A stretch of 24,706 nt of DNA from a virus. Its lineage: Duplodnaviria; Caudoviricetes. The notes under the pieces were generated by a model, which was given only the letters and a program-made list of their open reading frames with translations, ran no database searches and had not been told where the DNA came from. Location: IMG/VR virus record IMGVR_UViG_3300032329_000200, positions 1-24,706 of that record; one strand, written 5' to 3'. This document shows, one piece after another, positions 2,093-23,032 of this stretch. Position numbers and translations under genes: made by a program. Position 1 is the first letter of the stretch. The number at the start of each line of letters is the position of its first letter.

Positions 2093-2230
2093 TTGCTCGC
2101 AAACATTCTGCAAGTCGCTGGTGTGGTATCGGTTGCCGTTGGCGCATTTTTGATTTGGGTTCCTGCCGGTTTCATTGTTACCGGTGCAGGGCTTATCCTG
2201 TTTGGCCTTGCCGCGGAAAGAAGTAAATAA
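2093..2230 (+). CDS. Small hydrophobic membrane protein (45 aa) between terL and portal
   Basis: Not in the ORF track; read manually. TTG start after AGGGAG, translating MLANILQVAGVVSVAVGAFLIWVPAGFIVTGAGLILFGLAAERSK*. Its stop overlaps the portal ATG (TAATG). Two hydrophobic segments. Confidence 0.75.
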   Translation: MLANILQVAGVVSVAVGAFLIWVPAGFIVTGAGLILFGLAAERSK

Positions 2231-3633
2231 TGTTAAACCGTTTATTGCCGATTGGTGAAGAACGCGCCATTTCCTTCCAATCAATTTGGGGTTCTGGCGG
2301 TGACCTGACGGCTTTTAGCACACAGGCCGACACTCTTATCGATCAGCAGTCTGCGACGGCTATAAACGCTGTGTGGGCTTGTGTCACTTTGATTGCTGAC
2401 ACGATTTCTACTTTGCCTGTTGATGCGTTTGTGAAACGCGACGGTGTGACGTTCCCTTACCGACCAAAACCGACTTGGGTTACTCAACCAGACTTTGAGC
2501 TTGCTTCGACGGCGTTTTGGCAGCAGTGCCTCATTTCCCTTTTGCTCGACGGCAACGCTTTTGTTCGCGTGTTCCGTGATCCGAACACTGGTGATGTTCT
2601 AAACCTGATGACCCTTGACCCGATGAAGGTTACGGTGAACCGCACGGCTGTGGGGCAGAAGCGTTTCACTTATGAGGGTGAAGGCAAGTCGTTGGACTCT
2701 AACCAAATTCTGCATATCACTGGTTCGTTGTTGATGCCTGGGCAGGTTCGTGCTGTTAGCCCTGTTGACAGGTTGAAAGAGAACTTGGGTTTGGCTTCGG
2801 CTTTGGAAAGTTTCGCAGCTCGTTTCTTTGGGCAGGGAACACACACTCAGGGCGTTATCACTTACCCTGGCACTTTGACTCAGGAACAGGCCGCTAACTT
2901 GTCGCGTTCGTTTGACAGCGCACACAAGGGTTTCAAACGCGCTCACCGCACCGGTGTTTTGTCTGGCGGTGCGCAATTCCAGAAAACTTCCGCTAATCCT
3001 GACGAGGCGCAAATGTTGGATTCGCGACGTTTGGCTGTTGAGGACATTGCTCGCGCTTACCGTGTGCCGTTGAATATGATTGGTTTGGCTGAGAAGGGTG
3101 CGCAGTCTTACAACTCGAACGAGCAGAACGCTATTTCTTTTGTCACTCACACTCTTAGGCCGTGGATTGTCAAGCTCGAGGATGCGTTCTCGACCTTGTT
3201 GCCGAATAAGGCTTACATTGATTTCAACGTTTCGGAACTGTTGCGAGGCGATTTTGCGACTCGTGTTGCTGGTTACTCGTCGGCGTTGCAGGCTGGTTGG
3301 ATGACAATCAATGAGGTTCGTAAGATTGAGGACTTCAAACCTGTTGCTGATGGTGACACTAACCGCGTTCCTTTGGCTAACGTGAACTTGGGTTCCGCTT
3401 CGCTTGGTGAGCAGGAAAGCAAAATTGGTATGGCTCAAAAACTTATTAACATTGGTTTCAAGCCTGAAGATGTTTTGTCGGCGTTGGCTTTGCCACCAAT
3501 TCCTCACACCGGTATTCCGTCAACTCAGTTACAAAACCCTTCACTGGTTGATCCTGCTAACCCTTTGACTTATGACACCGGAACCGAGTCTCTTCCTTCT
3601 GCGATTGTTGCGCCTACGCAAGAAGGTTTGTAA
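2230..3633 (+). CDS. Portal protein, HK97 family
   Basis: Motifs 'AVWACVTLIADTISTLP', 'LLLDGNAFV', 'EDIARAYRVP', 'GWMTINEVRKIED'. Position after terL. Carries a C-terminal extension of about 80 aa. Confidence 0.95.
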   Translation: MLNRLLPIGEERAISFQSIWGSGGDLTAFSTQADTLIDQQSATAINAVWACVTLIADTISTLPVDAFVKRDGVTFPYRPKPTWVTQPDFELASTAFWQQCLISLLLDGNAFVRVFRDPNTGDVLNLMTLDPMKVTVNRTAVGQKRFTYEGEGKSLDSNQILHITGSLLMPGQVRAVSPVDRLKENLGLASALESFAARFFGQGTHTQGVITYPGTLTQEQAANLSRSFDSAHKGFKRAHRTGVLSGGAQFQKTSANPDEAQMLDSRRLAVEDIARAYRVPLNMIGLAEKGAQSYNSNEQNAISFVTHTLRPWIVKLEDAFSTLLPNKAYIDFNVSELLRGDFATRVAGYSSALQAGWMTINEVRKIEDFKPVADGDTNRVPLANVNLGSASLGEQESKIGMAQKLINIGFKPEDVLSALALPPIPHTGIPSTQLQNPSLVDPANPLTYDTGTESLPSAIVAPTQEGL

Positions 3634-3905
3634 TGCCAATAACGCAAACCGCTTACACGGTGGGAACTGCTTTGGTGCAGGTTATTGCACCTGATACGCA
3701 ACCTCAGTTTGTAACTTTGCACAATTTGGAAGATGTAACTGGTCGCAAAATTTACATTGGCAACGGTGCTTTGGTTGCTGGCCAGTCGGTTGAAATAAAC
3801 CCTGCCGTGTATTTGCAAATGACTTTGGGGCCTGGCGATAACTTGTTTGCTGTTACAAGCTCCGGCACTTATGATCTTGGCGTAATGATTCAGAAGCAGG
3901 ACTGA
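3633..3905 (+). CDS. Hypothetical beta-rich virion protein (90 aa)
   Basis: Translationally coupled to the portal (TAATG) and to the next gene (TGATG). Alternating hydrophobic beta-strand pattern. Confidence 0.7.
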   Translation: MPITQTAYTVGTALVQVIAPDTQPQFVTLHNLEDVTGRKIYIGNGALVAGQSVEINPAVYLQMTLGPGDNLFAVTSSGTYDLGVMIQKQD

Positions 3906-6007
3906 TGCCTTACTTTATCAAGAAAGCCGTGAAGGGCTGGAATACAATTAAGAGTGACGGAACTGTTGTCGGATCACACGCTACAAAACAGGGTGCGATT
4001 GACCAAATGGTTGCTGTTAGTTTGGCTGAGAAGTCGACTCCAGGTGGCGAAATGCGAGCAAGTTTTACACCTCCACAGGGCGTTTCTGATGCGGCTAAAC
4101 GAGCTTTGGAATGGATTGACAAAGGACTTGCTGGGTCTGGGTTTACGGCTGTTGGCCGTCGACGTGCAGAACAACTTGCTTCGGGTTCGGCTGTTTCGGA
4201 GGATGTTGTTGCAAGGATGCGTTCTTATTTCGCTCGACACGAGGTTGATAAGAAAGCAACAGGTTTCAATTTCGGTGAGAAAAACTTTCCGACTCCTGGG
4301 CGTGTGGCTTGGGATGCGTGGGGTGGCGACGCCGGACAAAAATGGGCTAATAGTTTAGGAAGCAAAATGACTACAAGAGATGCCGGAATGAATATCGGTA
4401 TAAGCGACATTGACGATACGTTGATTGTCGAAGGCAAAATTCACCAAGACTACTACGCCTGGCTTGACCACCAACCGGTTGACCTTTACTTGGTTACTGG
4501 CAGACCGACCACTAATCGCGAGTCGACGATTGCACAGCTCAACAACTTAGGTGTGCAATACCAGCAACTCATTATGAACCCTGGCGGTGACCCTAACCAA
4601 TTCAAGGGTGACACTGCTGCCTCTCTTATGGAGGATGGTTACAATATTGCGTTTGCCGTAGACAATAACCCTGAAGCACGTCAAGCTTACACTGATGCCG
4701 GTGTCGCTAACGTTTATGACCCTGCGAAAATGCCTGCTATGGCTGCTATGGCGCAACGTGATGGTGGAATGGATGAAATGCCTGAACCTGTTGCTGCTGA
4801 GGCCACTGAGGAAACCCCTGCTTACCTGGCTGGTGAGTTGTCGGAACTTTTGGGCAACTTGGTTGCTGCTAAATTCTTGGCTCACGGTGCGCATTGGAAT
4901 GTTAAGGGTGTTCTGTTTCCACAATTCCACAAGTTTTTTCAGAAAATTTATGAGGATTACGATTCGGCTATTGATCCTGTGGCTGAGAACATTCGTAAGC
5001 TGGACGTTGATGCGCCGTTTATGTTGCCAACTTTTGTTGCCGACACCGAAATTGATGCGACGTTTATTGGCGGTGACCCTGTTCAGTTGTCTTTAGCGAT
5101 TTACAAGGCCAACGAAATTCTGTTGTCTGACATTGTTGAGACTCAAAAGTGTGCTGATGAACTAAACCAGCAGGGCATTTTCAACTTCTTGGCTGACCTG
5201 CAAGACCGTTTCTCGTTGTGGCATTGGCAACTCGGCACTGTTATTGGTGATGACTTGCGTAACGCTTACGCCACGGAGATTGAAGAAGTGGGCGAAATCC
5301 ACGACCCTGTTCAACCTACTGACCAGATGGAACCAGCACCAGGCGATTACGAGGGTGTTGATGCTTCGGGTGCGACGAACATTCCTGTAACCGTTGAGGG
5401 CCGTTTCGTTGATCCAAAGACCGTTCAAGAAAACCGCGATAAAGGAACAAAAATGATGGAACAACGCATTGCTCAGGAAACTATTGAGCTGCGCCAGGAA
5501 GGTGACGGTATGACCTTTAGCGGTTATGCTGCTAAATTCAACTCACCTAGCCAACCTCTACCGTTTACCGAGATTATCAAGCCTGGTGCGTTCAAGCGTT
5601 CACTCGCTTCTCGCAACGACGTGAAGCTGTTGTGGAACCACGACACCTCACAGGTTTTGGGTTCTACTCGTGCAGGAACGCTAACTCTTGTTGAAGATGG
5701 TGTTGGCCTAAAGGTTACGGCTCAACTGCCGAACACTTCTGCCGGTCGCGATGCTGCCGAACTTATTAAGCGTGGCGATGTAAACGCTATGAGCTTTGGT
5801 TTCTCTGTGCCACAGGGCGGCGATTCTTGGTCTGAAGATGGCAACACTCGCGAACTAAACTCGGTAAGACTTTTCGAATGTAGCGTTGTGGCATTTCCAG
5901 CATATAGCGCGACGGAGGGTTCAACCTCTGTTAGATCAGGTGAGCAAGCCGAACAGAAGGCTGCCGACCTGTCACTTCTAAGGAAACGCCTCGACCTTCA
6001 GAAGTAG
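3905..6007 (+). CDS. Multidomain prohead (capsid maturation) protease: N-terminal unknown domains + HAD phosphatase + Dps/ferritin-like domain + HK97-type protease
   Basis: C-terminal aa ~517-678 has HK97 protease motifs 'FSGYAAKFN', 'LLWNHD', 'MSFGF', 'LFECSVVAFPAY'. aa ~163-272 has HAD motifs DIDDT / VTGR / K / VDN. aa ~305-448 has the Dps signature 'HWNVKG..F...H..F...Y.......D..AENIR.L'. Lies between portal and capsid. Confidence 0.9.
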   Translation: MPYFIKKAVKGWNTIKSDGTVVGSHATKQGAIDQMVAVSLAEKSTPGGEMRASFTPPQGVSDAAKRALEWIDKGLAGSGFTAVGRRRAEQLASGSAVSEDVVARMRSYFARHEVDKKATGFNFGEKNFPTPGRVAWDAWGGDAGQKWANSLGSKMTTRDAGMNIGISDIDDTLIVEGKIHQDYYAWLDHQPVDLYLVTGRPTTNRESTIAQLNNLGVQYQQLIMNPGGDPNQFKGDTAASLMEDGYNIAFAVDNNPEARQAYTDAGVANVYDPAKMPAMAAMAQRDGGMDEMPEPVAAEATEETPAYLAGELSELLGNLVAAKFLAHGAHWNVKGVLFPQFHKFFQKIYEDYDSAIDPVAENIRKLDVDAPFMLPTFVADTEIDATFIGGDPVQLSLAIYKANEILLSDIVETQKCADELNQQGIFNFLADLQDRFSLWHWQLGTVIGDDLRNAYATEIEEVGEIHDPVQPTDQMEPAPGDYEGVDASGATNIPVTVEGRFVDPKTVQENRDKGTKMMEQRIAQETIELRQEGDGMTFSGYAAKFNSPSQPLPFTEIIKPGAFKRSLASRNDVKLLWNHDTSQVLGSTRAGTLTLVEDGVGLKVTAQLPNTSAGRDAAELIKRGDVNAMSFGFSVPQGGDSWSEDGNTRELNSVRLFECSVVAFPAYSATEGSTSVRSGEQAEQKAADLSLLRKRLDLQK

Positions 6008-6020
6008 TGTTTTTTTGCAC

Positions 6021-6033
6021 TAAAATTGAAGTA
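6021..6033 (+). promoter_or_regulatory. Putative late promoter -10 element (TAAAAT-TG-AAG-T-A) for the capsid gene
   Basis: One of six intergenic matches to TANNNT-WG-NNN-T-A (also 7339, 8543, 10409, 14107, 16526). Confidence 0.55.
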
Positions 6034-6113
6034 TTGAGTGTTAGCACCAATAGCCAGCGTTAGCGTAGGCAATTCCATTATTCAATTCAAATCAAACCTG
6101 AAAGGACATTATT

Positions 6114-7280
6114 ATGTCTGAATTTCTAAACGGTATGGTTGAGGAACGCCAGAAGATGTGGCACGAGGCGAAAGCAATTATTGACGTTGCTGAAGCCGAG
6201 GGTCGTTCGCTTACTGGTGAAGAAGAAGCCAAATACCAGGCTATTTCTGCTGACCTCGACAAGAAGGCCGAATTCATCGACGAGGCTCGTAGCCGCGCCG
6301 AGCGTGAAGAGCGTGCAGCTGCTGCTGCTTCGCAGACTCGCGTTTCAACTCCTGCAACCAGCAACAACGACGAGGCTATTCTTCGTTCGCTTGTCAACGG
6401 TGGCGGACACGAATTCCGTGCCATTACCCCTTCAAGCACCGGTTCACCTGTGCCTACCTCGTTCTACAACAAGGTTATCGAGCTTGCTCGTCTAACCGGC
6501 CCTATGTTGCAGACCTCGACCGTGTTGAACACTGCTTCTGGTGAGCCTCTTCAGATTCCGTCACTTGGTAGCTACTCGGCTGCTACTGTGAAGGCACCTG
6601 GTGCTGCTATTGACACCAACGAGCCTGTTTTCAACTCGTTCACTACCCTGTCGGCTTACAAGTATTCGGGTCTTATCTCGGTTGCTCGTGAACTTATGAC
6701 GGATGCAGGTGTTGACCTTATGGGCTTCATCGCAACCGAAGTTGGTAACGCACTTGGTTACGCAGTAAACACCGGTCTAACCACCGGAACTGGAACTGTT
6801 CAGCCTACTGGTGTTGTCAACGTTGCAGGTTCTGCACTCGTTGGTGGAACCGGTGTTTCTGGGTTGCCAACCGCAGACAACATCTTCGACCTGATCTACA
6901 GCCTAGACGGTGCGCTTCGTCAGAAGAACACCTTCGGTCTGCAGATGAACGCGAAGTCGATTGCTGCTGTTCGTAAGCTCAAGGACAACTACGGCCGTTA
7001 CCTTTTCGATCCAGCCCTATCGGCCGAAAAGCGCGACCTTATCGGTGGCTACCAGGTCTTCGAGAACCCTGCAATGGCAGACCCAGCCGTTAATGCTAAG
7101 AGCATTATCGCCGGTGACCTGTCAGCGTATTACGTTCGTTCAGTCGGTGGCGTTCGCCTCGACCGTTCAGACGACTACGCGTTCGGTTCTGACCTAACCA
7201 CGTTCCGTTTCACCTTCCGGGTTGACGGTAACCTGCCTCAGACCTCGCACATCAAATACTTCAAGGGTGCTGCAAGCTAG
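6114..7280 (+). CDS. Major capsid protein, HK97 fold, with N-terminal delta (scaffold) domain
   Basis: Coiled-coil N-terminus of about 100 aa ending at 'EFRA'. Motifs 'KYSGLISVARELMTDA', 'GTGTVQPTGV', 'RKLKDNYGRYLF', 'GDLSAYYV'. Strong RBS GAAAGGA. Confidence 0.96.
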   Translation: MSEFLNGMVEERQKMWHEAKAIIDVAEAEGRSLTGEEEAKYQAISADLDKKAEFIDEARSRAEREERAAAAASQTRVSTPATSNNDEAILRSLVNGGGHEFRAITPSSTGSPVPTSFYNKVIELARLTGPMLQTSTVLNTASGEPLQIPSLGSYSAATVKAPGAAIDTNEPVFNSFTTLSAYKYSGLISVARELMTDAGVDLMGFIATEVGNALGYAVNTGLTTGTGTVQPTGVVNVAGSALVGGTGVSGLPTADNIFDLIYSLDGALRQKNTFGLQMNAKSIAAVRKLKDNYGRYLFDPALSAEKRDLIGGYQVFENPAMADPAVNAKSIIAGDLSAYYVRSVGGVRLDRSDDYAFGSDLTTFRFTFRVDGNLPQTSHIKYFKGAAS

Positions 7281-7365: not shown

Positions 7366-8550
7366 ATGAATGGTGTTATTGCGTGGGCTTCGAACAGTCC
7401 GACCGCGCCGACAGGTTACGGAACACAGACTGCCGAGTTTTTGATTCAAGCGAAACGTGCAGGTTATAAGGTTGCTTCGATAAGCAATTATGGCCTTGAG
7501 GGTGTGAACACTGTTTGGGATTCCCCTGTTGGCAAGATTCCGCACTATGCCAGGGGAAGTGATCCTTATAGCAATGACGTGATTCCGTTACACGCACAGC
7601 ATTGGGCGAATATGAACCCTGACTTGCCGTCTTGTTTGATTACTCTTTACGATGCTTGGGTGTTTGAGGGAGTCGGCTTTGACCGTTTGGACAGGATTGG
7701 TTCTTGGACTCCTGTGGATCACTCACCGATTCCTGAACGCGTTTTGAAGTGGTTGCGCCGCGACAACGTGACACCGATTGCAATGAGTAAGTTTGGTTTG
7801 GCTCAAATGCAGAACGCTGGTTTGGATGCTGAGTATGTTCCTCACGGCATTGATACAAGAAAAGTTTTTAAGCCAACGTTCAAGTTGCCTGACGGAACAC
7901 CTATCGAGGAACACTTGGACTCGAAGGACAAGTTTGTTGTGGGTATCAATGCGGCAAACAAGGGTGTTTATCCTATGCGTAAGGCGTGGGATGTAAACCT
8001 GTTGGCGTTTAGTATTTTTGCTCAAAACCACGATGACGTTTTGCTTTACATTCACAGCGAACCGTTTGGGTCTGTGGGCGGTGTGAACTTGTTTGACTTG
8101 TTGGAGGCTGTTGGTTTGCCGAAGAATAAAGTTTCTTTTGTTGATCCTGTGGCTTACCGTTACGGTATCGACCAGCAAACTGTGGCCGCGCTTTACACCG
8201 GTATGGATGTTCTCCTAGCAACGAGTCTGGGTGAAGGCTTTGGTCTTGCCACGATTGAAGCTCAGGCTTGTGGCACGCGCGTGATCGGTTCCGACTATGC
8301 AGCAACACCTGAGTTATTGTCAGACGATTCTTGGAAGGTTCAGGGCCAACCTTTGTGGGATGCGCCTCAAAAGTCTTGGTTCAACACTCCTAACGTTATG
8401 GAGATTGTTTTGGCGTTGGAGGATGCCTACCAGAAGGGCAAGTATCGGTCACAGGCGGCTCGTGAGAAGGCTTTGGAGTATGACTCGGATAAAGTGTTCA
8501 AGGAACAATGGCAACCCGTCTTAGGGCGTTTGCTGAGTGCGGTAAAATAG
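7366..8550 (+). CDS. Glycosyltransferase, GT-B fold (GT4/Glycos_transf_1-like)
   Basis: 'PTGYG' N-terminal loop, 'VPHGID', and the GT4 E-x7-E motif 'GEGFGLATIEAQACGTRVI'. RBS GAGAGG. Confidence 0.92.
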   Translation: MNGVIAWASNSPTAPTGYGTQTAEFLIQAKRAGYKVASISNYGLEGVNTVWDSPVGKIPHYARGSDPYSNDVIPLHAQHWANMNPDLPSCLITLYDAWVFEGVGFDRLDRIGSWTPVDHSPIPERVLKWLRRDNVTPIAMSKFGLAQMQNAGLDAEYVPHGIDTRKVFKPTFKLPDGTPIEEHLDSKDKFVVGINAANKGVYPMRKAWDVNLLAFSIFAQNHDDVLLYIHSEPFGSVGGVNLFDLLEAVGLPKNKVSFVDPVAYRYGIDQQTVAALYTGMDVLLATSLGEGFGLATIEAQACGTRVIGSDYAATPELLSDDSWKVQGQPLWDAPQKSWFNTPNVMEIVLALEDAYQKGKYRSQAAREKALEYDSDKVFKEQWQPVLGRLLSAVK

Positions 8551-17361: not shown

Positions 17362-17640
17362 CTAAATTGATGTTAGCAGTTTTTCGCGGTCGGCGGTGGA
17401 CATTGCACCCCACACACCTGTTGGTTCTTTTGCTGCTAAAGCGTATTCGCCACACAAACCCATTATTGGGCACTCGTTGCACATTAGTTTCGCGTAGGCG
17501 ATTTGGGTTCGGTTTTGGATGTGGTCTCGACCGTTGTTGTCATCTTCCCAACTGGCAGGGTCTGATTTGCAGGGGATGTCGTTGTGAACTGATTGGATTG
17601 CTTTGATCAGCTCGGTGTAGAGGTGGTTTGCTTTAGACAC
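17362..17640 (-). CDS. whiB: WhiB-family (Wbl) Fe-S transcription factor
   Basis: Four Cys in the pattern C-xn-C-x2-C-x5-C ('PCKSDP...AKLMCNECPIMGLC') followed by 'GVWGAMSTADR'. Confidence 0.9.
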   Translation of the reverse strand: MSKANHLYTELIKAIQSVHNDIPCKSDPASWEDDNNGRDHIQNRTQIAYAKLMCNECPIMGLCGEYALAAKEPTGVWGAMSTADREKLLTSI

Positions 17641-19497: not shown

Positions 19498-19813
19498 ACT
19501 GGCTTTGGTGCGCGCTGAGGCCGCTAAGGGCGTTGACGTATTATTTGAGTGTGAGAGTGAGGTGGCTCGTTTGGATTTTGAGTATTCCAGAACTCAGGCA
19601 CAAGCCGTCTTGGATGCGCAAGGAACAGCGTTGGATCGTCAGGCTTTGGCGACGTTGGCTGCCGCGGAAGTAAAGTTGCAGTTGGATTTGGCTAAAGCAA
19701 AACTGAACCGAGTGAAGGCTAAACTACGCCATTTGCAGGATGTTCAAACGAACGTGCAGTCTCAGGCTCGAATGGTTGAGTTGACGTATAAGACTTCGGG
19801 GGTTGGGCGTTGA
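19463..19813 (+). CDS. Hypothetical coiled-coil protein (116 aa)
   Basis: RBS GAGAGG, all-helical heptad pattern, recombination-module position. Confidence 0.75.
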   Translation: MEFQTPDTIINELALVRAEAAKGVDVLFECESEVARLDFEYSRTQAQAVLDAQGTALDRQALATLAAAEVKLQLDLAKAKLNRVKAKLRHLQDVQTNVQSQARMVELTYKTSGVGR

Positions 19814-20616
19814 AGCACGTTGTGATGTTTAGCGGCGGTATTGGTTCCTGGATGACAGCCAAAAGAGTTGTTGAACAGTTTGGGCCTGACGATGTGATTT
19901 TGCTTTTTAGCGATGTTAAGGGTGATTCTGAAAACCCTCATATCGGCGAAGATGAGGACACTTACCGTTTCATCGACGAAGCCAGCAAAATGCTTGGGGC
20001 GCAACTGGTTACCCTGGTCGATGGTCGCAACATTTGGGAAGTGTTCAAGGATCGCAAGTTTTTGGGCAATTCTCGTCTTGCGCCTTGTTCGGCTGAATTG
20101 AAACAGAAGCCAGCAAAAAAGTGGATTTGGGAAAACTGTGACCCAAATGAAACGATGATTTATGTGGGCATTGATTGGACTGAAACGCACCGGTTGGCTG
20201 CGGTTTCGCGAGGTTATGAGCCTTATCACGTTGCTGCGCCTTTGACTGCTGAACCTTTTTACACCAAAGAACAAATGATTGCTGAAGCTGAGAATATTGG
20301 CCTTCGTGCGCCACGGCTTTATTCAATGGGTTTCAAACACAATAACTGTGGTGGGGGTTGTGTTCGTGCCGGTCATAGTCAATTCAAAAACTTGCTGGAC
20401 AGGATGCCAGAACGGTTTGCTGAATGGGAAAAACAAGAAGAAAAAATGCAAGATTTTTTGGGTGTTGAGGTAACAATTTTGAGTCGCACTATTGACGGTA
20501 AGAAAACGCCTTTTAGTTTGACAAACCTTCGTCACGCCGCAGAAGAACAACCTTATTTGATTGATATGAACGATGAGGGTGTTTCTTGTAACTGCACCAG
20601 TAGTTGGTTATCGTGA
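19810..20616 (+). CDS. PAPS-reductase-like PP-loop (adenine nucleotide alpha-hydrolase) protein
   Basis: PP-loop 'VVMFSGGIGS', 'PCSAELK', 'YVGIDWTE..R', Cys cluster 'HNNCGGGCVRAG' and C-terminal 'CNC'. Confidence 0.8.
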   Translation: MKHVVMFSGGIGSWMTAKRVVEQFGPDDVILLFSDVKGDSENPHIGEDEDTYRFIDEASKMLGAQLVTLVDGRNIWEVFKDRKFLGNSRLAPCSAELKQKPAKKWIWENCDPNETMIYVGIDWTETHRLAAVSRGYEPYHVAAPLTAEPFYTKEQMIAEAENIGLRAPRLYSMGFKHNNCGGGCVRAGHSQFKNLLDRMPERFAEWEKQEEKMQDFLGVEVTILSRTIDGKKTPFSLTNLRHAAEEQPYLIDMNDEGVSCNCTSSWLS

Positions 20617-21711: not shown

Positions 21712-22403
21712 TGCAACCAGGTATCTATCGTTCCGAACTATCCTTCGAGCAAGGTTATGTTCAAGCACCGACCGGCTGGTTGCGTGATCCAAACATTTCG
21801 TTCAAAGCCAAAGGGCTACTCGTTTACCTTTTGAGCCATAAGGTCGGCTACACGATTACTCGGGCGCAAATTGTGCGTGAGTCAACTGATGGGCGCGATG
21901 CCGTCGATGCTGCCATTCGTGAGCTTGTGAAGGCTGGTTATTTGCAAACCTCACAAACACGGCAGGATGATGGCCGCAACGGTGCGTTGGCGTTCACGAT
22001 TTGCGAGCCAGAGTCGGAAAATCCGTCTTTGGTAAATCCAGAGTCGGAAAAACCGTTTACGGAAAAACCGTTTACGGATAATCCGACCGCTAAAGAAGAT
22101 ATTAAATTAGAGAATATTAAGTTAAGTATTAAGCAAAATTCAAAAGGCTTCAAAAATGATTGGTCTTTACCTGCCGATCAGCGAACAAAACTTGAAGCTC
22201 AATACCCTAACGCGAACCTTGATGCTGAACTTGCTTTGATGATTGATTATTTGATTGCGAATGGCAAGGAAAAGTCTGTGAAGGATATGGCTGCCAGGTT
22301 CCGCACCTGGATGGCTAATGCCGACAAATTCAACAAGGGTGCTTATTCGACTCGTGTGATGGATGAATGGTTTGTCAAGCCTGAGAATCGGGTGCAGTTT
22401 TGA
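21711..22403 (+). CDS. Phage replication initiator (N-terminal wHTH, C-terminal helical domain)
   Basis: 'D..IS.KAKGLL.YLLS', 'ELVKAGYL', internal iteron repeats and an AT-rich tract, C-terminal 'KD.AARFRTW..NA'. Upstream of dnaB. Confidence 0.8.
   Translation: MQPGIYRSELSFEQGYVQAPTGWLRDPNISFKAKGLLVYLLSHKVGYTITRAQIVRESTDGRDAVDAAIRELVKAGYLQTSQTRQDDGRNGALAFTICEPESENPSLVNPESEKPFTEKPFTDNPTAKEDIKLENIKLSIKQNSKGFKNDWSLPADQRTKLEAQYPNANLDAELALMIDYLIANGKEKSVKDMAARFRTWMANADKFNKGAYSTRVMDEWFVKPENRVQF
22008..22146. repeat. Putative replication origin: five 15-bp iterons plus AT-rich unwinding region
   Basis: CCAGAGTCGGAAAAT / CCGTCTTTGGTAAAT / CCAGAGTCGGAAAAA / CCGTTTACGGAAAAA / CCGTTTACGGATAAT (22008-22082), then an AT-rich stretch with three TATTAA. 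Confidence 0.75.
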
Positions 22404-23032
22404 GTTTGTCAGATGATTACACGATTGAACCAATCAGTTACAAAATGGCTATGGAATTGATAATTCAAAATCATTATCTCCATCGCAAGGCTCCTTGTTC
22501 AATGGCGTTCGGTTTGTTTTCTAATAAGAGTGGTCTTTGTGATGGTGTTGTCATTTATGGTGTTAGTCCGTCTAGCACTTTGTTAAGGGGAGTTTGTGGC
22601 CTTGACGAAGCAAAAAATGTTTATGAATTGACTCGATTATGGGTTGATGATTCAGTTCCAAAAAATGGCGAAAGTTTTTTGATTGGCAACACTTTACGTT
22701 TGGTTAATCGGGAAATTATTATTTCTTTTGCTGATACAAGTCAGAAACATTTAGGGATTGTTTATCAAGCTACTAATTGGATTTATACGGGATTATCAAC
22801 AAAGTTTCGTGATCCGAAAGTCAAAGGACTTGAACACCAGCATCACGCTACTTATGCAAATGGTTTATCGAATAAGCAAGTTATTGAAAAGTTTGGTGTC
22901 GAAAATGTTTATTTTGTTGAACGACCGCAAAAGCACCGATACGTTTTTTTCAATGCTACGAAAAAGAGGAAAAAAGAATTGTTATCTAAATTGAATTATC
23001 AAATTTTGCCTTATCCAAAGTTGGCAGAATGA
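22400..23032 (+). CDS. mom: Mom-family (GNAT-fold) DNA adenine modification protein homolog
   Basis: 'IIQNHYLH', 'GVVIYG', 'ELTRLW', 'KNGESFLI...LR', 'ISFAD....H.G.VYQATNW.YTG' match the motif order of phage Mu Mom-like proteins. Confidence 0.75.
   Translation: MSLSDDYTIEPISYKMAMELIIQNHYLHRKAPCSMAFGLFSNKSGLCDGVVIYGVSPSSTLLRGVCGLDEAKNVYELTRLWVDDSVPKNGESFLIGNTLRLVNREIIISFADTSQKHLGIVYQATNWIYTGLSTKFRDPKVKGLEHQHHATYANGLSNKQVIEKFGVENVYFVERPQKHRYVFFNATKKRKKELLSKLNYQILPYPKLAE

Follow-up and report, generated by a model that had tools for sequence, protein, structure and literature searches.

What are a mini-ferritin and a phosphatase doing in a protein that occupies the place of a phage prohead protease? 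The question is raised by a 24,706-base stretch of DNA (IMG/VR record IMGVR_UViG_3300032329_000200; this whole stretch is referred to as the window), in which a single frame of 700 residues, positions 3905 to 6007 on the plus strand, proved free of internal stops when the open reading frames (ORFs) and their translations were checked. The genes of this phage run in the order small and large terminase, portal, a 90-residue ORF, the polyprotein gene, HK97-type capsid, glycosyltransferase, and neck and tail genes. A preliminary description made from the sequence alone had placed the ORF in the protease slot between portal and capsid and had divided it into five modules; both assignments were upheld, the first by the ORF list and Pfam and the second by Pfam, PHROG and an AlphaFold model. 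The most far-reaching answer is a tentative one, to which we give somewhat less than even weight: in small freshwater actinophages the maturation protease may act as a programmable loading rack, yielding virions with working Dps cages and an end-healing phosphatase. The polyprotein has the following parts.

3905–6007, plus strand: whole ORF, 700 residues, M1-M2-HAD-Dps-S78 protease-C-terminal helix (from the ORF list, Pfam, PHROG and AlphaFold).
3905–4057, plus strand: M1, residues 1–51, three strands and a helix, isoelectric point (pI) 9.6, ending in Arg51 (4055–4057), the first probable cut site.
4058–4378, plus strand: M2, residues 52–158, helical, PHROG 2859-type, pI 10.0, ending in Arg158 (4376–4378).
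4379–4759, plus strand: HAD phosphatase of the PNKP 3'-phosphatase/LNS2 type, residues 159–285, ending in Arg285 (4757–4759).
4811–5254, plus strand: Dps mini-ferritin, residues 303–450, a four-helix bundle with a short middle helix (from Pfam, fold and residues).
5255–5404, plus strand: acidic, mostly disordered linker ending in Arg500 (5402–5404), an apparent zone of recent recombination.
5441–5455, plus strand: Shine-Dalgarno-like AAAGGA and in-frame ATG (Met517), where plain protease relatives begin.
5465–5935, plus strand: HK97-family (S78) prohead protease, with Arg521 and Arg530 at its front, His579, Ser630 and Glu658, and Arg677 at its end.
5936–6004, plus strand: C-terminal tail with a conserved Leu/Lys helix (residues 689–699), a candidate prohead-targeting signal.

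Pfam matched Peptidase_S78 at residues 527–683 (E = 2e-48), Ferritin at residues 312–448 (E = 1e-11) and Acid_phosphat_B at residues 184–251 (E = 4e-6), and PHROG 2859, a family of unknown function, matched residues 51–154 (E = 6e-40). The AlphaFold model, based on a 74-row alignment, has five folded units joined by low-confidence linkers (residues 46–51, 154–161, 278–301, 465–520 and 665–688) with predicted local distance difference test (pLDDT) values below 50. M1 and M2 are themselves confidently folded (pLDDT 92). M1, described earlier as a small beta domain, is indeed a small folded domain, but of three strands and a helix rather than beta only, and a domain of its type also stands at the front of the protease of Pontimonas phage phiPsal1. 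M2 has the invariant residues Ala88, Arg111, His112, Asp115, Trp139 and Gly140, including the motif Arg-His-x-x-Asp. In fold searches with M1 and M2, nothing reached E < 0.001 in Foldseek, the best VIA-align match had a Z of 5.1, and the matches in the Atlas were to unnamed viral clusters only, which does not in itself make either a new fold.

The folds that had been proposed for the two enzymes were borne out by structure matches to the T4 Pnkp 3'-phosphatase and to Dps chains. For the Dps module (model helices at residues 305–332, 338–364, 374–380, 392–419 and 423–447) the top matches were Dps chains (Z 22.5, root mean square deviation (rmsd) 2.0 over 150 residues), with bacterioferritin and ferritin lower (16–18.7), and a second fold search gave a template modeling (TM) score of 0.91 and an rmsd of 1.2 to cellular Dps. 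The five ferroxidase-site residues, His330, Trp331, His342, Asp357 and Glu361, are present in all 119 homologues that have the domain (119/119) and share alignment columns with solved Dps, and the second-shell position 346 varies (Gln, Gly or Glu). Cellular Dps proteins (2fjc, 3iq1, 8ff9 and 2pyb) have both the fold and these residues in common with the phage domain, which differs from them in being 17–26% identical, situated within a polyprotein, acidic, and under the NCBIfam Dps cut-off. The piece comprising residues 286–500 has 11 Lys and Arg against 40 Asp and Glu (pI 4.1) and no basic terminal tail. E. coli Dps coats DNA and many Dps proteins have no basic tail; its absence leaves the membership of the phage domain in the Dps group untouched. 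One 777-residue relative (P0135) has two Dps domains in tandem.

The phosphatase module has the HAD motif residues Asp168, Asp170, Thr198, Arg200, Lys234, Asp253 and Asn254, and among homologues Asp168 is conserved in 118/118, Asp170 in 115/118, Thr or Ser at position 198 in 120/120 and Lys234 in 121/121. Its fold matched Nir2 LNS2 (Z 16.7), the T4 Pnkp 3'-phosphatase (Z 14.9, rmsd 2.0 over 114 residues) and Pnkp1 (Z 14.6); the HAD module alone gave nothing significant with phmmer against the PDB. The small HAD fold, DxD, Thr-Gly-Arg and Lys are common to the phage module and to T4 Pnkp (5uj0), Pnkp1 (4xrp) and Nir2 LNS2 (9jtz). Unlike T4 Pnkp, however, the phage module has no attached kinase (no P-loop kinase domain was matched in the ORF by Pfam, PHROG or the AlphaFold model), and in most members the second Asp of motif IV is replaced by Asn. 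This motif, Asp253-Asn254, aligns with the Asp-Asp of Pnkp1; Asn254 is found in 111/121 homologues and Ala or Ser in 10/121, and loci L190 and L114 have Asp-Asp. Asn at motif IV is tolerated in lipin-type enzymes.

The protease module scored 164.9 bits against PF04586 (cut-off 21) and 129.5 bits against TIGR01543 (cut-off 59). His579, Ser630 and Glu658, singled out in the preliminary description and taken by us, from the S78 family, to be the catalytic residues, are all retained in 121/121 aligned homologues. The protein resembles HK97 gp4 and D3-type proteases in its slot between the portal and a capsid with a scaffold domain, in passing the TIGR01543 cut-off and in its His, Ser and Glu, but has ~500 extra residues holding four optional modules that are predicted to be cleavable, two of them enzymes. 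The Leu/Lys helix at the C-terminus occurs in 204 of the 241 proteases examined, plain ones included, and is likely to be a prohead-targeting signal; Duda and colleagues are said to have found in 2013 that terminal segments of the HK97 protease direct packaging. The AAAGGA and Met517 ahead of the protease are a candidate internal start, either a relic or a live one. Met517/518 is not the majority residue among the 74 aligned homologues, which gives no conserved internal start there, and a purine run ahead of the invariant Met536 may merely reflect the codons for Glu-Gly-Asp-Gly.

An ORF of this kind might result from an assembly chimera, missed stops or decaying passengers, the more so as the record is linear, comes from an uncultured virus and was compared with contigs rather than raw reads. 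We consider this explanation extremely improbable, as it is contradicted by the homologues, the IMG/VR loci, an independent contig and the substitution rates. Among the best 120 homologues (3307 matches among 8000 scored), 118 have both Ferritin and S78. In a set of 121 near homologues from four sources (query included; modules assigned with profiles built in this analysis), the fusion is open with all five modules in 77, while 30 are without M2, two are without Dps, and 12, possibly truncated, begin at M2 or HAD. In 19 of 21 IMG/VR loci the same slot holds the whole fusion or a part of it, and BFVD holds a 763-residue prohead protease that is 60% identical over the full length. A contig from another study's run spans positions 3601–6296 unbroken with 240 differing letters, and the best-matching contig holder spans 3600–5811 with 10. 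The one-piece contig and the architecture of the homologues rule out the chimera or missed stops that the preliminary description had named as grounds for abandoning its proposal. The ratio of nonsynonymous to synonymous substitutions (dN/dS; Nei-Gojobori, from 13 pairs, not independent of one another, formed by 11 of 14 aligned ORFs) was 0.26 for M1, 0.22 for M2, 0.14 for HAD, 0.12 for Dps and 0.09 for the protease, compared with 0.30 for the linkers, and all five modules are under purifying selection. None of 792 matches to GenBank phages covers 80% of the polyprotein, and none of 42 GenBank matches to the cargo part reaches HAD or Dps. The preliminary description knew of no characterised phage with this architecture and called for a search; the database search has shown it to be not a one-off but one member of a large, shuffling family.

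The extent of this shuffling is evident from relatives at increasing distance. Of 120 shorter protease homologues, 52 have 30 or fewer residues in front of the protease, 27 have M2, seven M1, one HAD and 33 an unassigned stretch; some of those with short fronts are cut by contig ends and others look whole, such as the 249-residue P0336, which is found on 25 contigs. The cargo is therefore optional, since plain 249-residue relatives occur. Further afield, 59 of 148 distant relatives sharing the cargo part have a head carrier (S78 in 31, XkdF in 24, ClpP in one and portal/MuF in three); in these distant relatives Dps may stand before or after S78 or after XkdF. Their passengers are not limited to the modules of the window: Hva1 Tudor, DUF5824, DUF5872, HNH and zeta-toxin-like domains also occur. 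M2 is widespread in GenBank phages, where it is fused to capsid (S-CBS1, S-CBS3 and Roseobacter CRP phages), portal, minor head and protease genes. A close counterpart, phiPsal1 gp6 (AUV61415.1), has the same gene order, a protease that is 62% identical, M1 and M2 in front and Arg borders, but differs in having a small Cys-rich module between M1 and M2 and neither HAD nor Dps. This four-Cys module (L022:3977–4160) is bounded by Arg and is possibly a metal- or Fe-S-binding cargo. Silent divergence between the window and locus L001 is at most 10% from M1 to Dps and 42% in the protease, with the boundary at 5255–5460, and this jump is a sign of recent recombination or exchange in the last linker. 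Locus L018 has a Dps much more divergent than its neighbours.

Since Dps oligomerises and the genome is small, the module could in principle have a structural role, bundling proteases into a core or filling an oversized head, with catalysis irrelevant. We regard this as improbable, as the metal ligands are invariant (119/119) and the domain is missing in two of the 121 near homologues, in phiPsal1 and in the plain relatives. Moreover, in a quickly built tree of 44 protease domains, with rows drawn from proteins found with a cargo part, the Dps label needs 11 changes, of which at least five gains or losses are forced by well-supported branches.

If the modules are indeed cargo, the question becomes how they are loaded and released, and here the borders between them are informative. 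Where homologues have a residue at the position, the border Arg residues are conserved in 78/84 (Arg51), 117/117 (Arg158), 114/119 (Arg285), 111/111 (Arg500) and 121/121 each (Arg521, Arg530 and Arg677), although the linkers are of low confidence (disordered) in the model and the columns next to these residues are variable. Of 129 low-confidence columns, 26 are conserved at 88% or more, and Arg is the commonest residue among them (six, against five each for Gly and Glu). In proteins without M2, M1 is joined to HAD exactly at the border Arg in 25 of 30, and five misfit. Similar sites occur in the two neighbouring head proteins.

2230–3633, plus strand: portal protein, with N-terminal Glu-x-Arg followed by Ala-Ile-Ser-Phe, Arg12 at 2263–2265.
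6114–7280, plus strand: HK97-type major capsid protein, with an N-terminal scaffold (delta) domain ending in Glu-Phe-Arg102 (6417–6419).

The portal start is found in 12 of the 12 loci with a whole portal start, and the scaffold domain ends in Glu-x-Arg, followed by Ala or Ser, in 13 of 13. As a control for whether the border residue tracks the module or the class of protease, we compared the last basic residue before M2 on the two kinds of carrier, omitting those with M2 at the very N-terminus: of the 18 S78 carriers, 14 have Arg at this point, whereas 21 of the 23 XkdF carriers have Lys (Fisher p = 1e-5), on backgrounds of 6.3 and 6.7% Arg and 4.6 and 5.0% Lys, respectively. Of the four S78 carriers that depart from the pattern, two keep Arg in its usual position and have a Lys within M2. 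These counts suggest that XkdF proteases cut after Lys; capsids of XkdF loci have separate scaffolds and give no clean read-out of such cutting. Head-maturation proteases are not known to cut outside proheads. Based on the conserved border Arg residues, the portal and capsid sites, the deletions that break at Arg and the split between Arg and Lys, we consider it likely that the polyprotein is loaded into the prohead and cuts itself after Arg, freeing its cargo. The preliminary suggestion that enzymes reach the head by way of the protease is strengthened by these borders, by the cargo shared among unrelated carriers and by the intact residues, and it is still something that we infer.

In the sequence of events that we envisage, the polyprotein would be co-assembled inside the prohead, probably through its C-terminal helix, in numbers for which the available part of PMC12749128 gives ~60 proteases per prohead in HK97 and ~90 in D3. 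The protease would cut after Arg102 of the capsid scaffold, Arg12 of the portal and its own Arg51, 158, 285, 500, 521, 530 and 677, and the pieces freed would be M1 (5.4 kDa), M2 (11.5 kDa), the phosphatase (13.9 kDa) and Dps (23.6 kDa), all computed masses. Ferroxidase sites would arise where Dps subunits pair, and the subunits would probably assemble into cages of 12; 60 copies would give each head about five such cages, which by their size would be expected to be unable to exit by capsid pores or the portal. There Dps may trap Fe2+ and consume H2O2 beside the packaged DNA, and the phosphatase, acting either within the head or soon after ejection, may clear 3'-phosphates from oxidatively broken ends of nucleic acids. 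The cassette would thus equip phages of surface fresh water to resist oxidative damage to their genomes, without being indispensable to them; these activities and this overall purpose are the least certain step. Space would be no obstacle, since 60 copies of the cargo take up roughly the room of 1.8 kb of packed DNA, for a genome of ~31 kb (24,706 bases at an estimated completeness of 80%). That the packaged DNA is shielded from iron and peroxide damage in this way is, in our estimation, evenly balanced.

Several observations weigh against this virion-protection reading. The acidic, tail-less Dps piece excludes DNA coating in the manner of E. coli Dps. HAD motif IV is Asp-Asn, with Ala or Ser in some members, and the best fold match of the putative phosphatase is the lipid-binding Nir2 LNS2. 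The rows in the comparison of Arg and Lys share ancestry and are not phylogenetically independent. M2 stands alone in PaBG, in a non-structural region, which suggests that it can work unfused and away from head genes; PaBG gp148 (M2) was not among the 13 of 14 virion bands that are readable in the available part of the source, which says little, since a protein of 11 kDa would go unseen on a Coomassie gel. Three further points also favor a different explanation, in which Dps and the phosphatase are late-expressed stress proteins that protect host and phage DNA in the infected cell, any packaging is a by-product, and the cargo is broken down or lost via the portal before the DNA enters. Stand-alone genes make up six of the 36 Dps-bearing ORFs in the fetched loci (L020, L021, L034, L037, L038 and L163), so that Dps, like M2, can evidently do without fusion, and the putative Met517 start could yield a cargo-free protease in the clade of the window. 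In addition, the D3 protease band is gone from Prohead 2, in which the cleaved capsid band alone is left (PMC12749128, available part), so protease-borne cargo may be degraded or lost. A role in defence against reactive oxygen species (ROS) has likewise been proposed for phage ferritins, Ferritin (PF00210) having been reported in 114 lake phages and read as host ROS defence (PMC6802176, available part). This explanation leaves unaccounted for the presence of Dps on either side of S78 and on XkdF, the tracking of protease class by the border residue, and the association of M2 with portal, MuF, capsid and three protease types, and we consider it unlikely.

Slightly less likely still, in our view, is that M1, M2 and the phosphatase are early effectors that enter the next host with the DNA in the style of T4 internal proteins. 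Under this proposal the phosphatase would heal tRNA or DNA ends cut by host defences, the basic M1 and M2 would shield DNA, and Dps would limit iron and oxidant stress. Consistent with it, the closest match in a HAD profile search was the bacterial Pnkp1 of an RNA-repair complex (E = 8e-7), the M2 gene of PaBG adjoins an RNA 2'-phosphotransferase-like gene, and related polyproteins have zeta-toxin-like kinase, HNH and ADP-ribosyltransferase-like domains. A similar scheme has been proposed for MuF, portal and protease fusions in what is available of PMC9503650 and PMC5512222. A Dps cage, however, could presumably pass the tail channel only by disassembling, and no ligase or kinase partner was seen within the window. 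Injection has its loading and cutting steps in common with protection of the packaged DNA, and may hold alongside it for M1, M2 and HAD.

How does the proposed protection of packaged DNA by protease-borne cargo relate to known systems? The preliminary description had called the arrangement encapsulin-like, which we retain as an analogy only, since the system belongs to a tailed phage and its cargo is part of a protease fusion rather than, as far as its sequence suggests, peptide-tagged. Membership among the encapsulins was rejected: the ORF sits among genes for terminase, portal, tail and replication, which places it outside the definition in the part of PMC8229669 available to us. Family 1 encapsulins with ferritin-like cargo, as described there, are alike in having an HK97-fold shell and cargo of the ferritin superfamily brought in by a terminal signal; in contrast, the phage packages DNA, and its cargo is Dps, protease-fused and predicted to be cut free. 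The available text of that review has no occurrence of Dps, and the C-terminal Leu/Lys helix, common to plain proteases, is by eye unlike two cargo-loading peptides given in it. Closer are the Nudix domains fused to MuF, portal and a capsid-processing serine peptidase, for which packaging was inferred (PMC9503650), and the multi-enzyme ("polyvalent") virion proteins of PMC5512222, both as far as the accessible parts go: there, too, enzyme domains lie on a head-interior protein with packaging predicted. Their cargo, by contrast, consists of NAD/ADP-ribose, nuclease and toxin domains read as injected effectors, and cutting is ascribed to metallopeptidases, whereas the Arg sites of the phage point to the maturation protease itself. 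The word "ferritin" does not occur in the accessible main texts of these two papers, neither ferritin nor Dps was found in the accessible part of PMC7824862, and the accessible main text of PMC6802176 makes no mention of protease or capsid. The parts available of PMC10275583, PMC3185693, PMC10052503, PMC8508860 and PMC7412058 added little on the polyprotein. No report of Dps cargo on a head protease was found in the open literature; subscription journals were mostly outside this coverage, and the supplements of PMC9503650 and PMC5512222 may list such cargo. Enzyme cargo on a head protein is thus already known, and what appears notable here is Dps together with indications, from sequence, of programmed release.

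Virions are generally regarded as inert while outside a host, and in surface water oxidation driven by sunlight is one of the main reasons why they decay. If the protection that we propose is real, a protein cage that clears iron and peroxide from within the capsid would represent a new means of survival for virions. Their enzymes would counter Fenton damage during the extracellular phase, and a pool of mineralised iron would be contained in lake virions. Some phage "ferritin" genes, among them perhaps some of those of the 114 phages in PMC6802176 (as far as available), would then be recast from host-helping stress genes to virion cargo. The Arg-delimited layout leads to exact predicted product sizes that are directly testable, and it would offer a natural route for multi-enzyme loading of HK97-type shells. 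M2, a widespread head-associated domain without a fold match, comes into view alongside.

The XkdF-type head clusters of five loci (L024, L034, L133, L151 and L163) encode long proteins in which Lys-His-x-x-x-x-His-Asp-Gln is repeated ahead of enzyme-like domains; the same clusters contain stand-alone Dps genes. These repeats are perhaps a second, peptide-tag route of cargo loading.

The short ORF next to the polyprotein gene has the following position.

3633–3905, plus strand: ORF of 90 residues, without a family assignment, overlapping the portal stop and the protease start.

It is present in seven of the 14 loci that hold both portal and protease, and in phiPsal1. Scans for promoters and terminators gave scores no better than shuffled sequence, and there were no RNA data among the listed holders of the sequence. 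An actinobacterial host is pointed to by a WhiB gene and by the gene order, which is as in phiPsal1; the 11 matching contigs from metagenome-assembled genomes have mixed labels and do not fix the host. The WhiB transcription factor, a marker of actinobacterial hosts, is encoded at 17362–17640 on the minus strand and is the sole clear minus-strand gene. A 268-residue ORF (19810–20616) without a match in Pfam or NCBIfam has an N-terminal Ser-Gly-Gly motif and Cys clusters, and by eye is PP-loop/PAPS-reductase-like. Directly after the capsid gene is a GT4 glycosyltransferase (7366–8550), found in the identical place in 12 related loci and in phiPsal1; virion glycosylation is known in actinophages, and this enzyme possibly has such a role. 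Lastly, a DNA modification gene of the Mom family (22400–23032; PF25680, E = 2e-42) lies in a low-GC stretch (0.35–0.41), and from this composition is perhaps a recent arrival.

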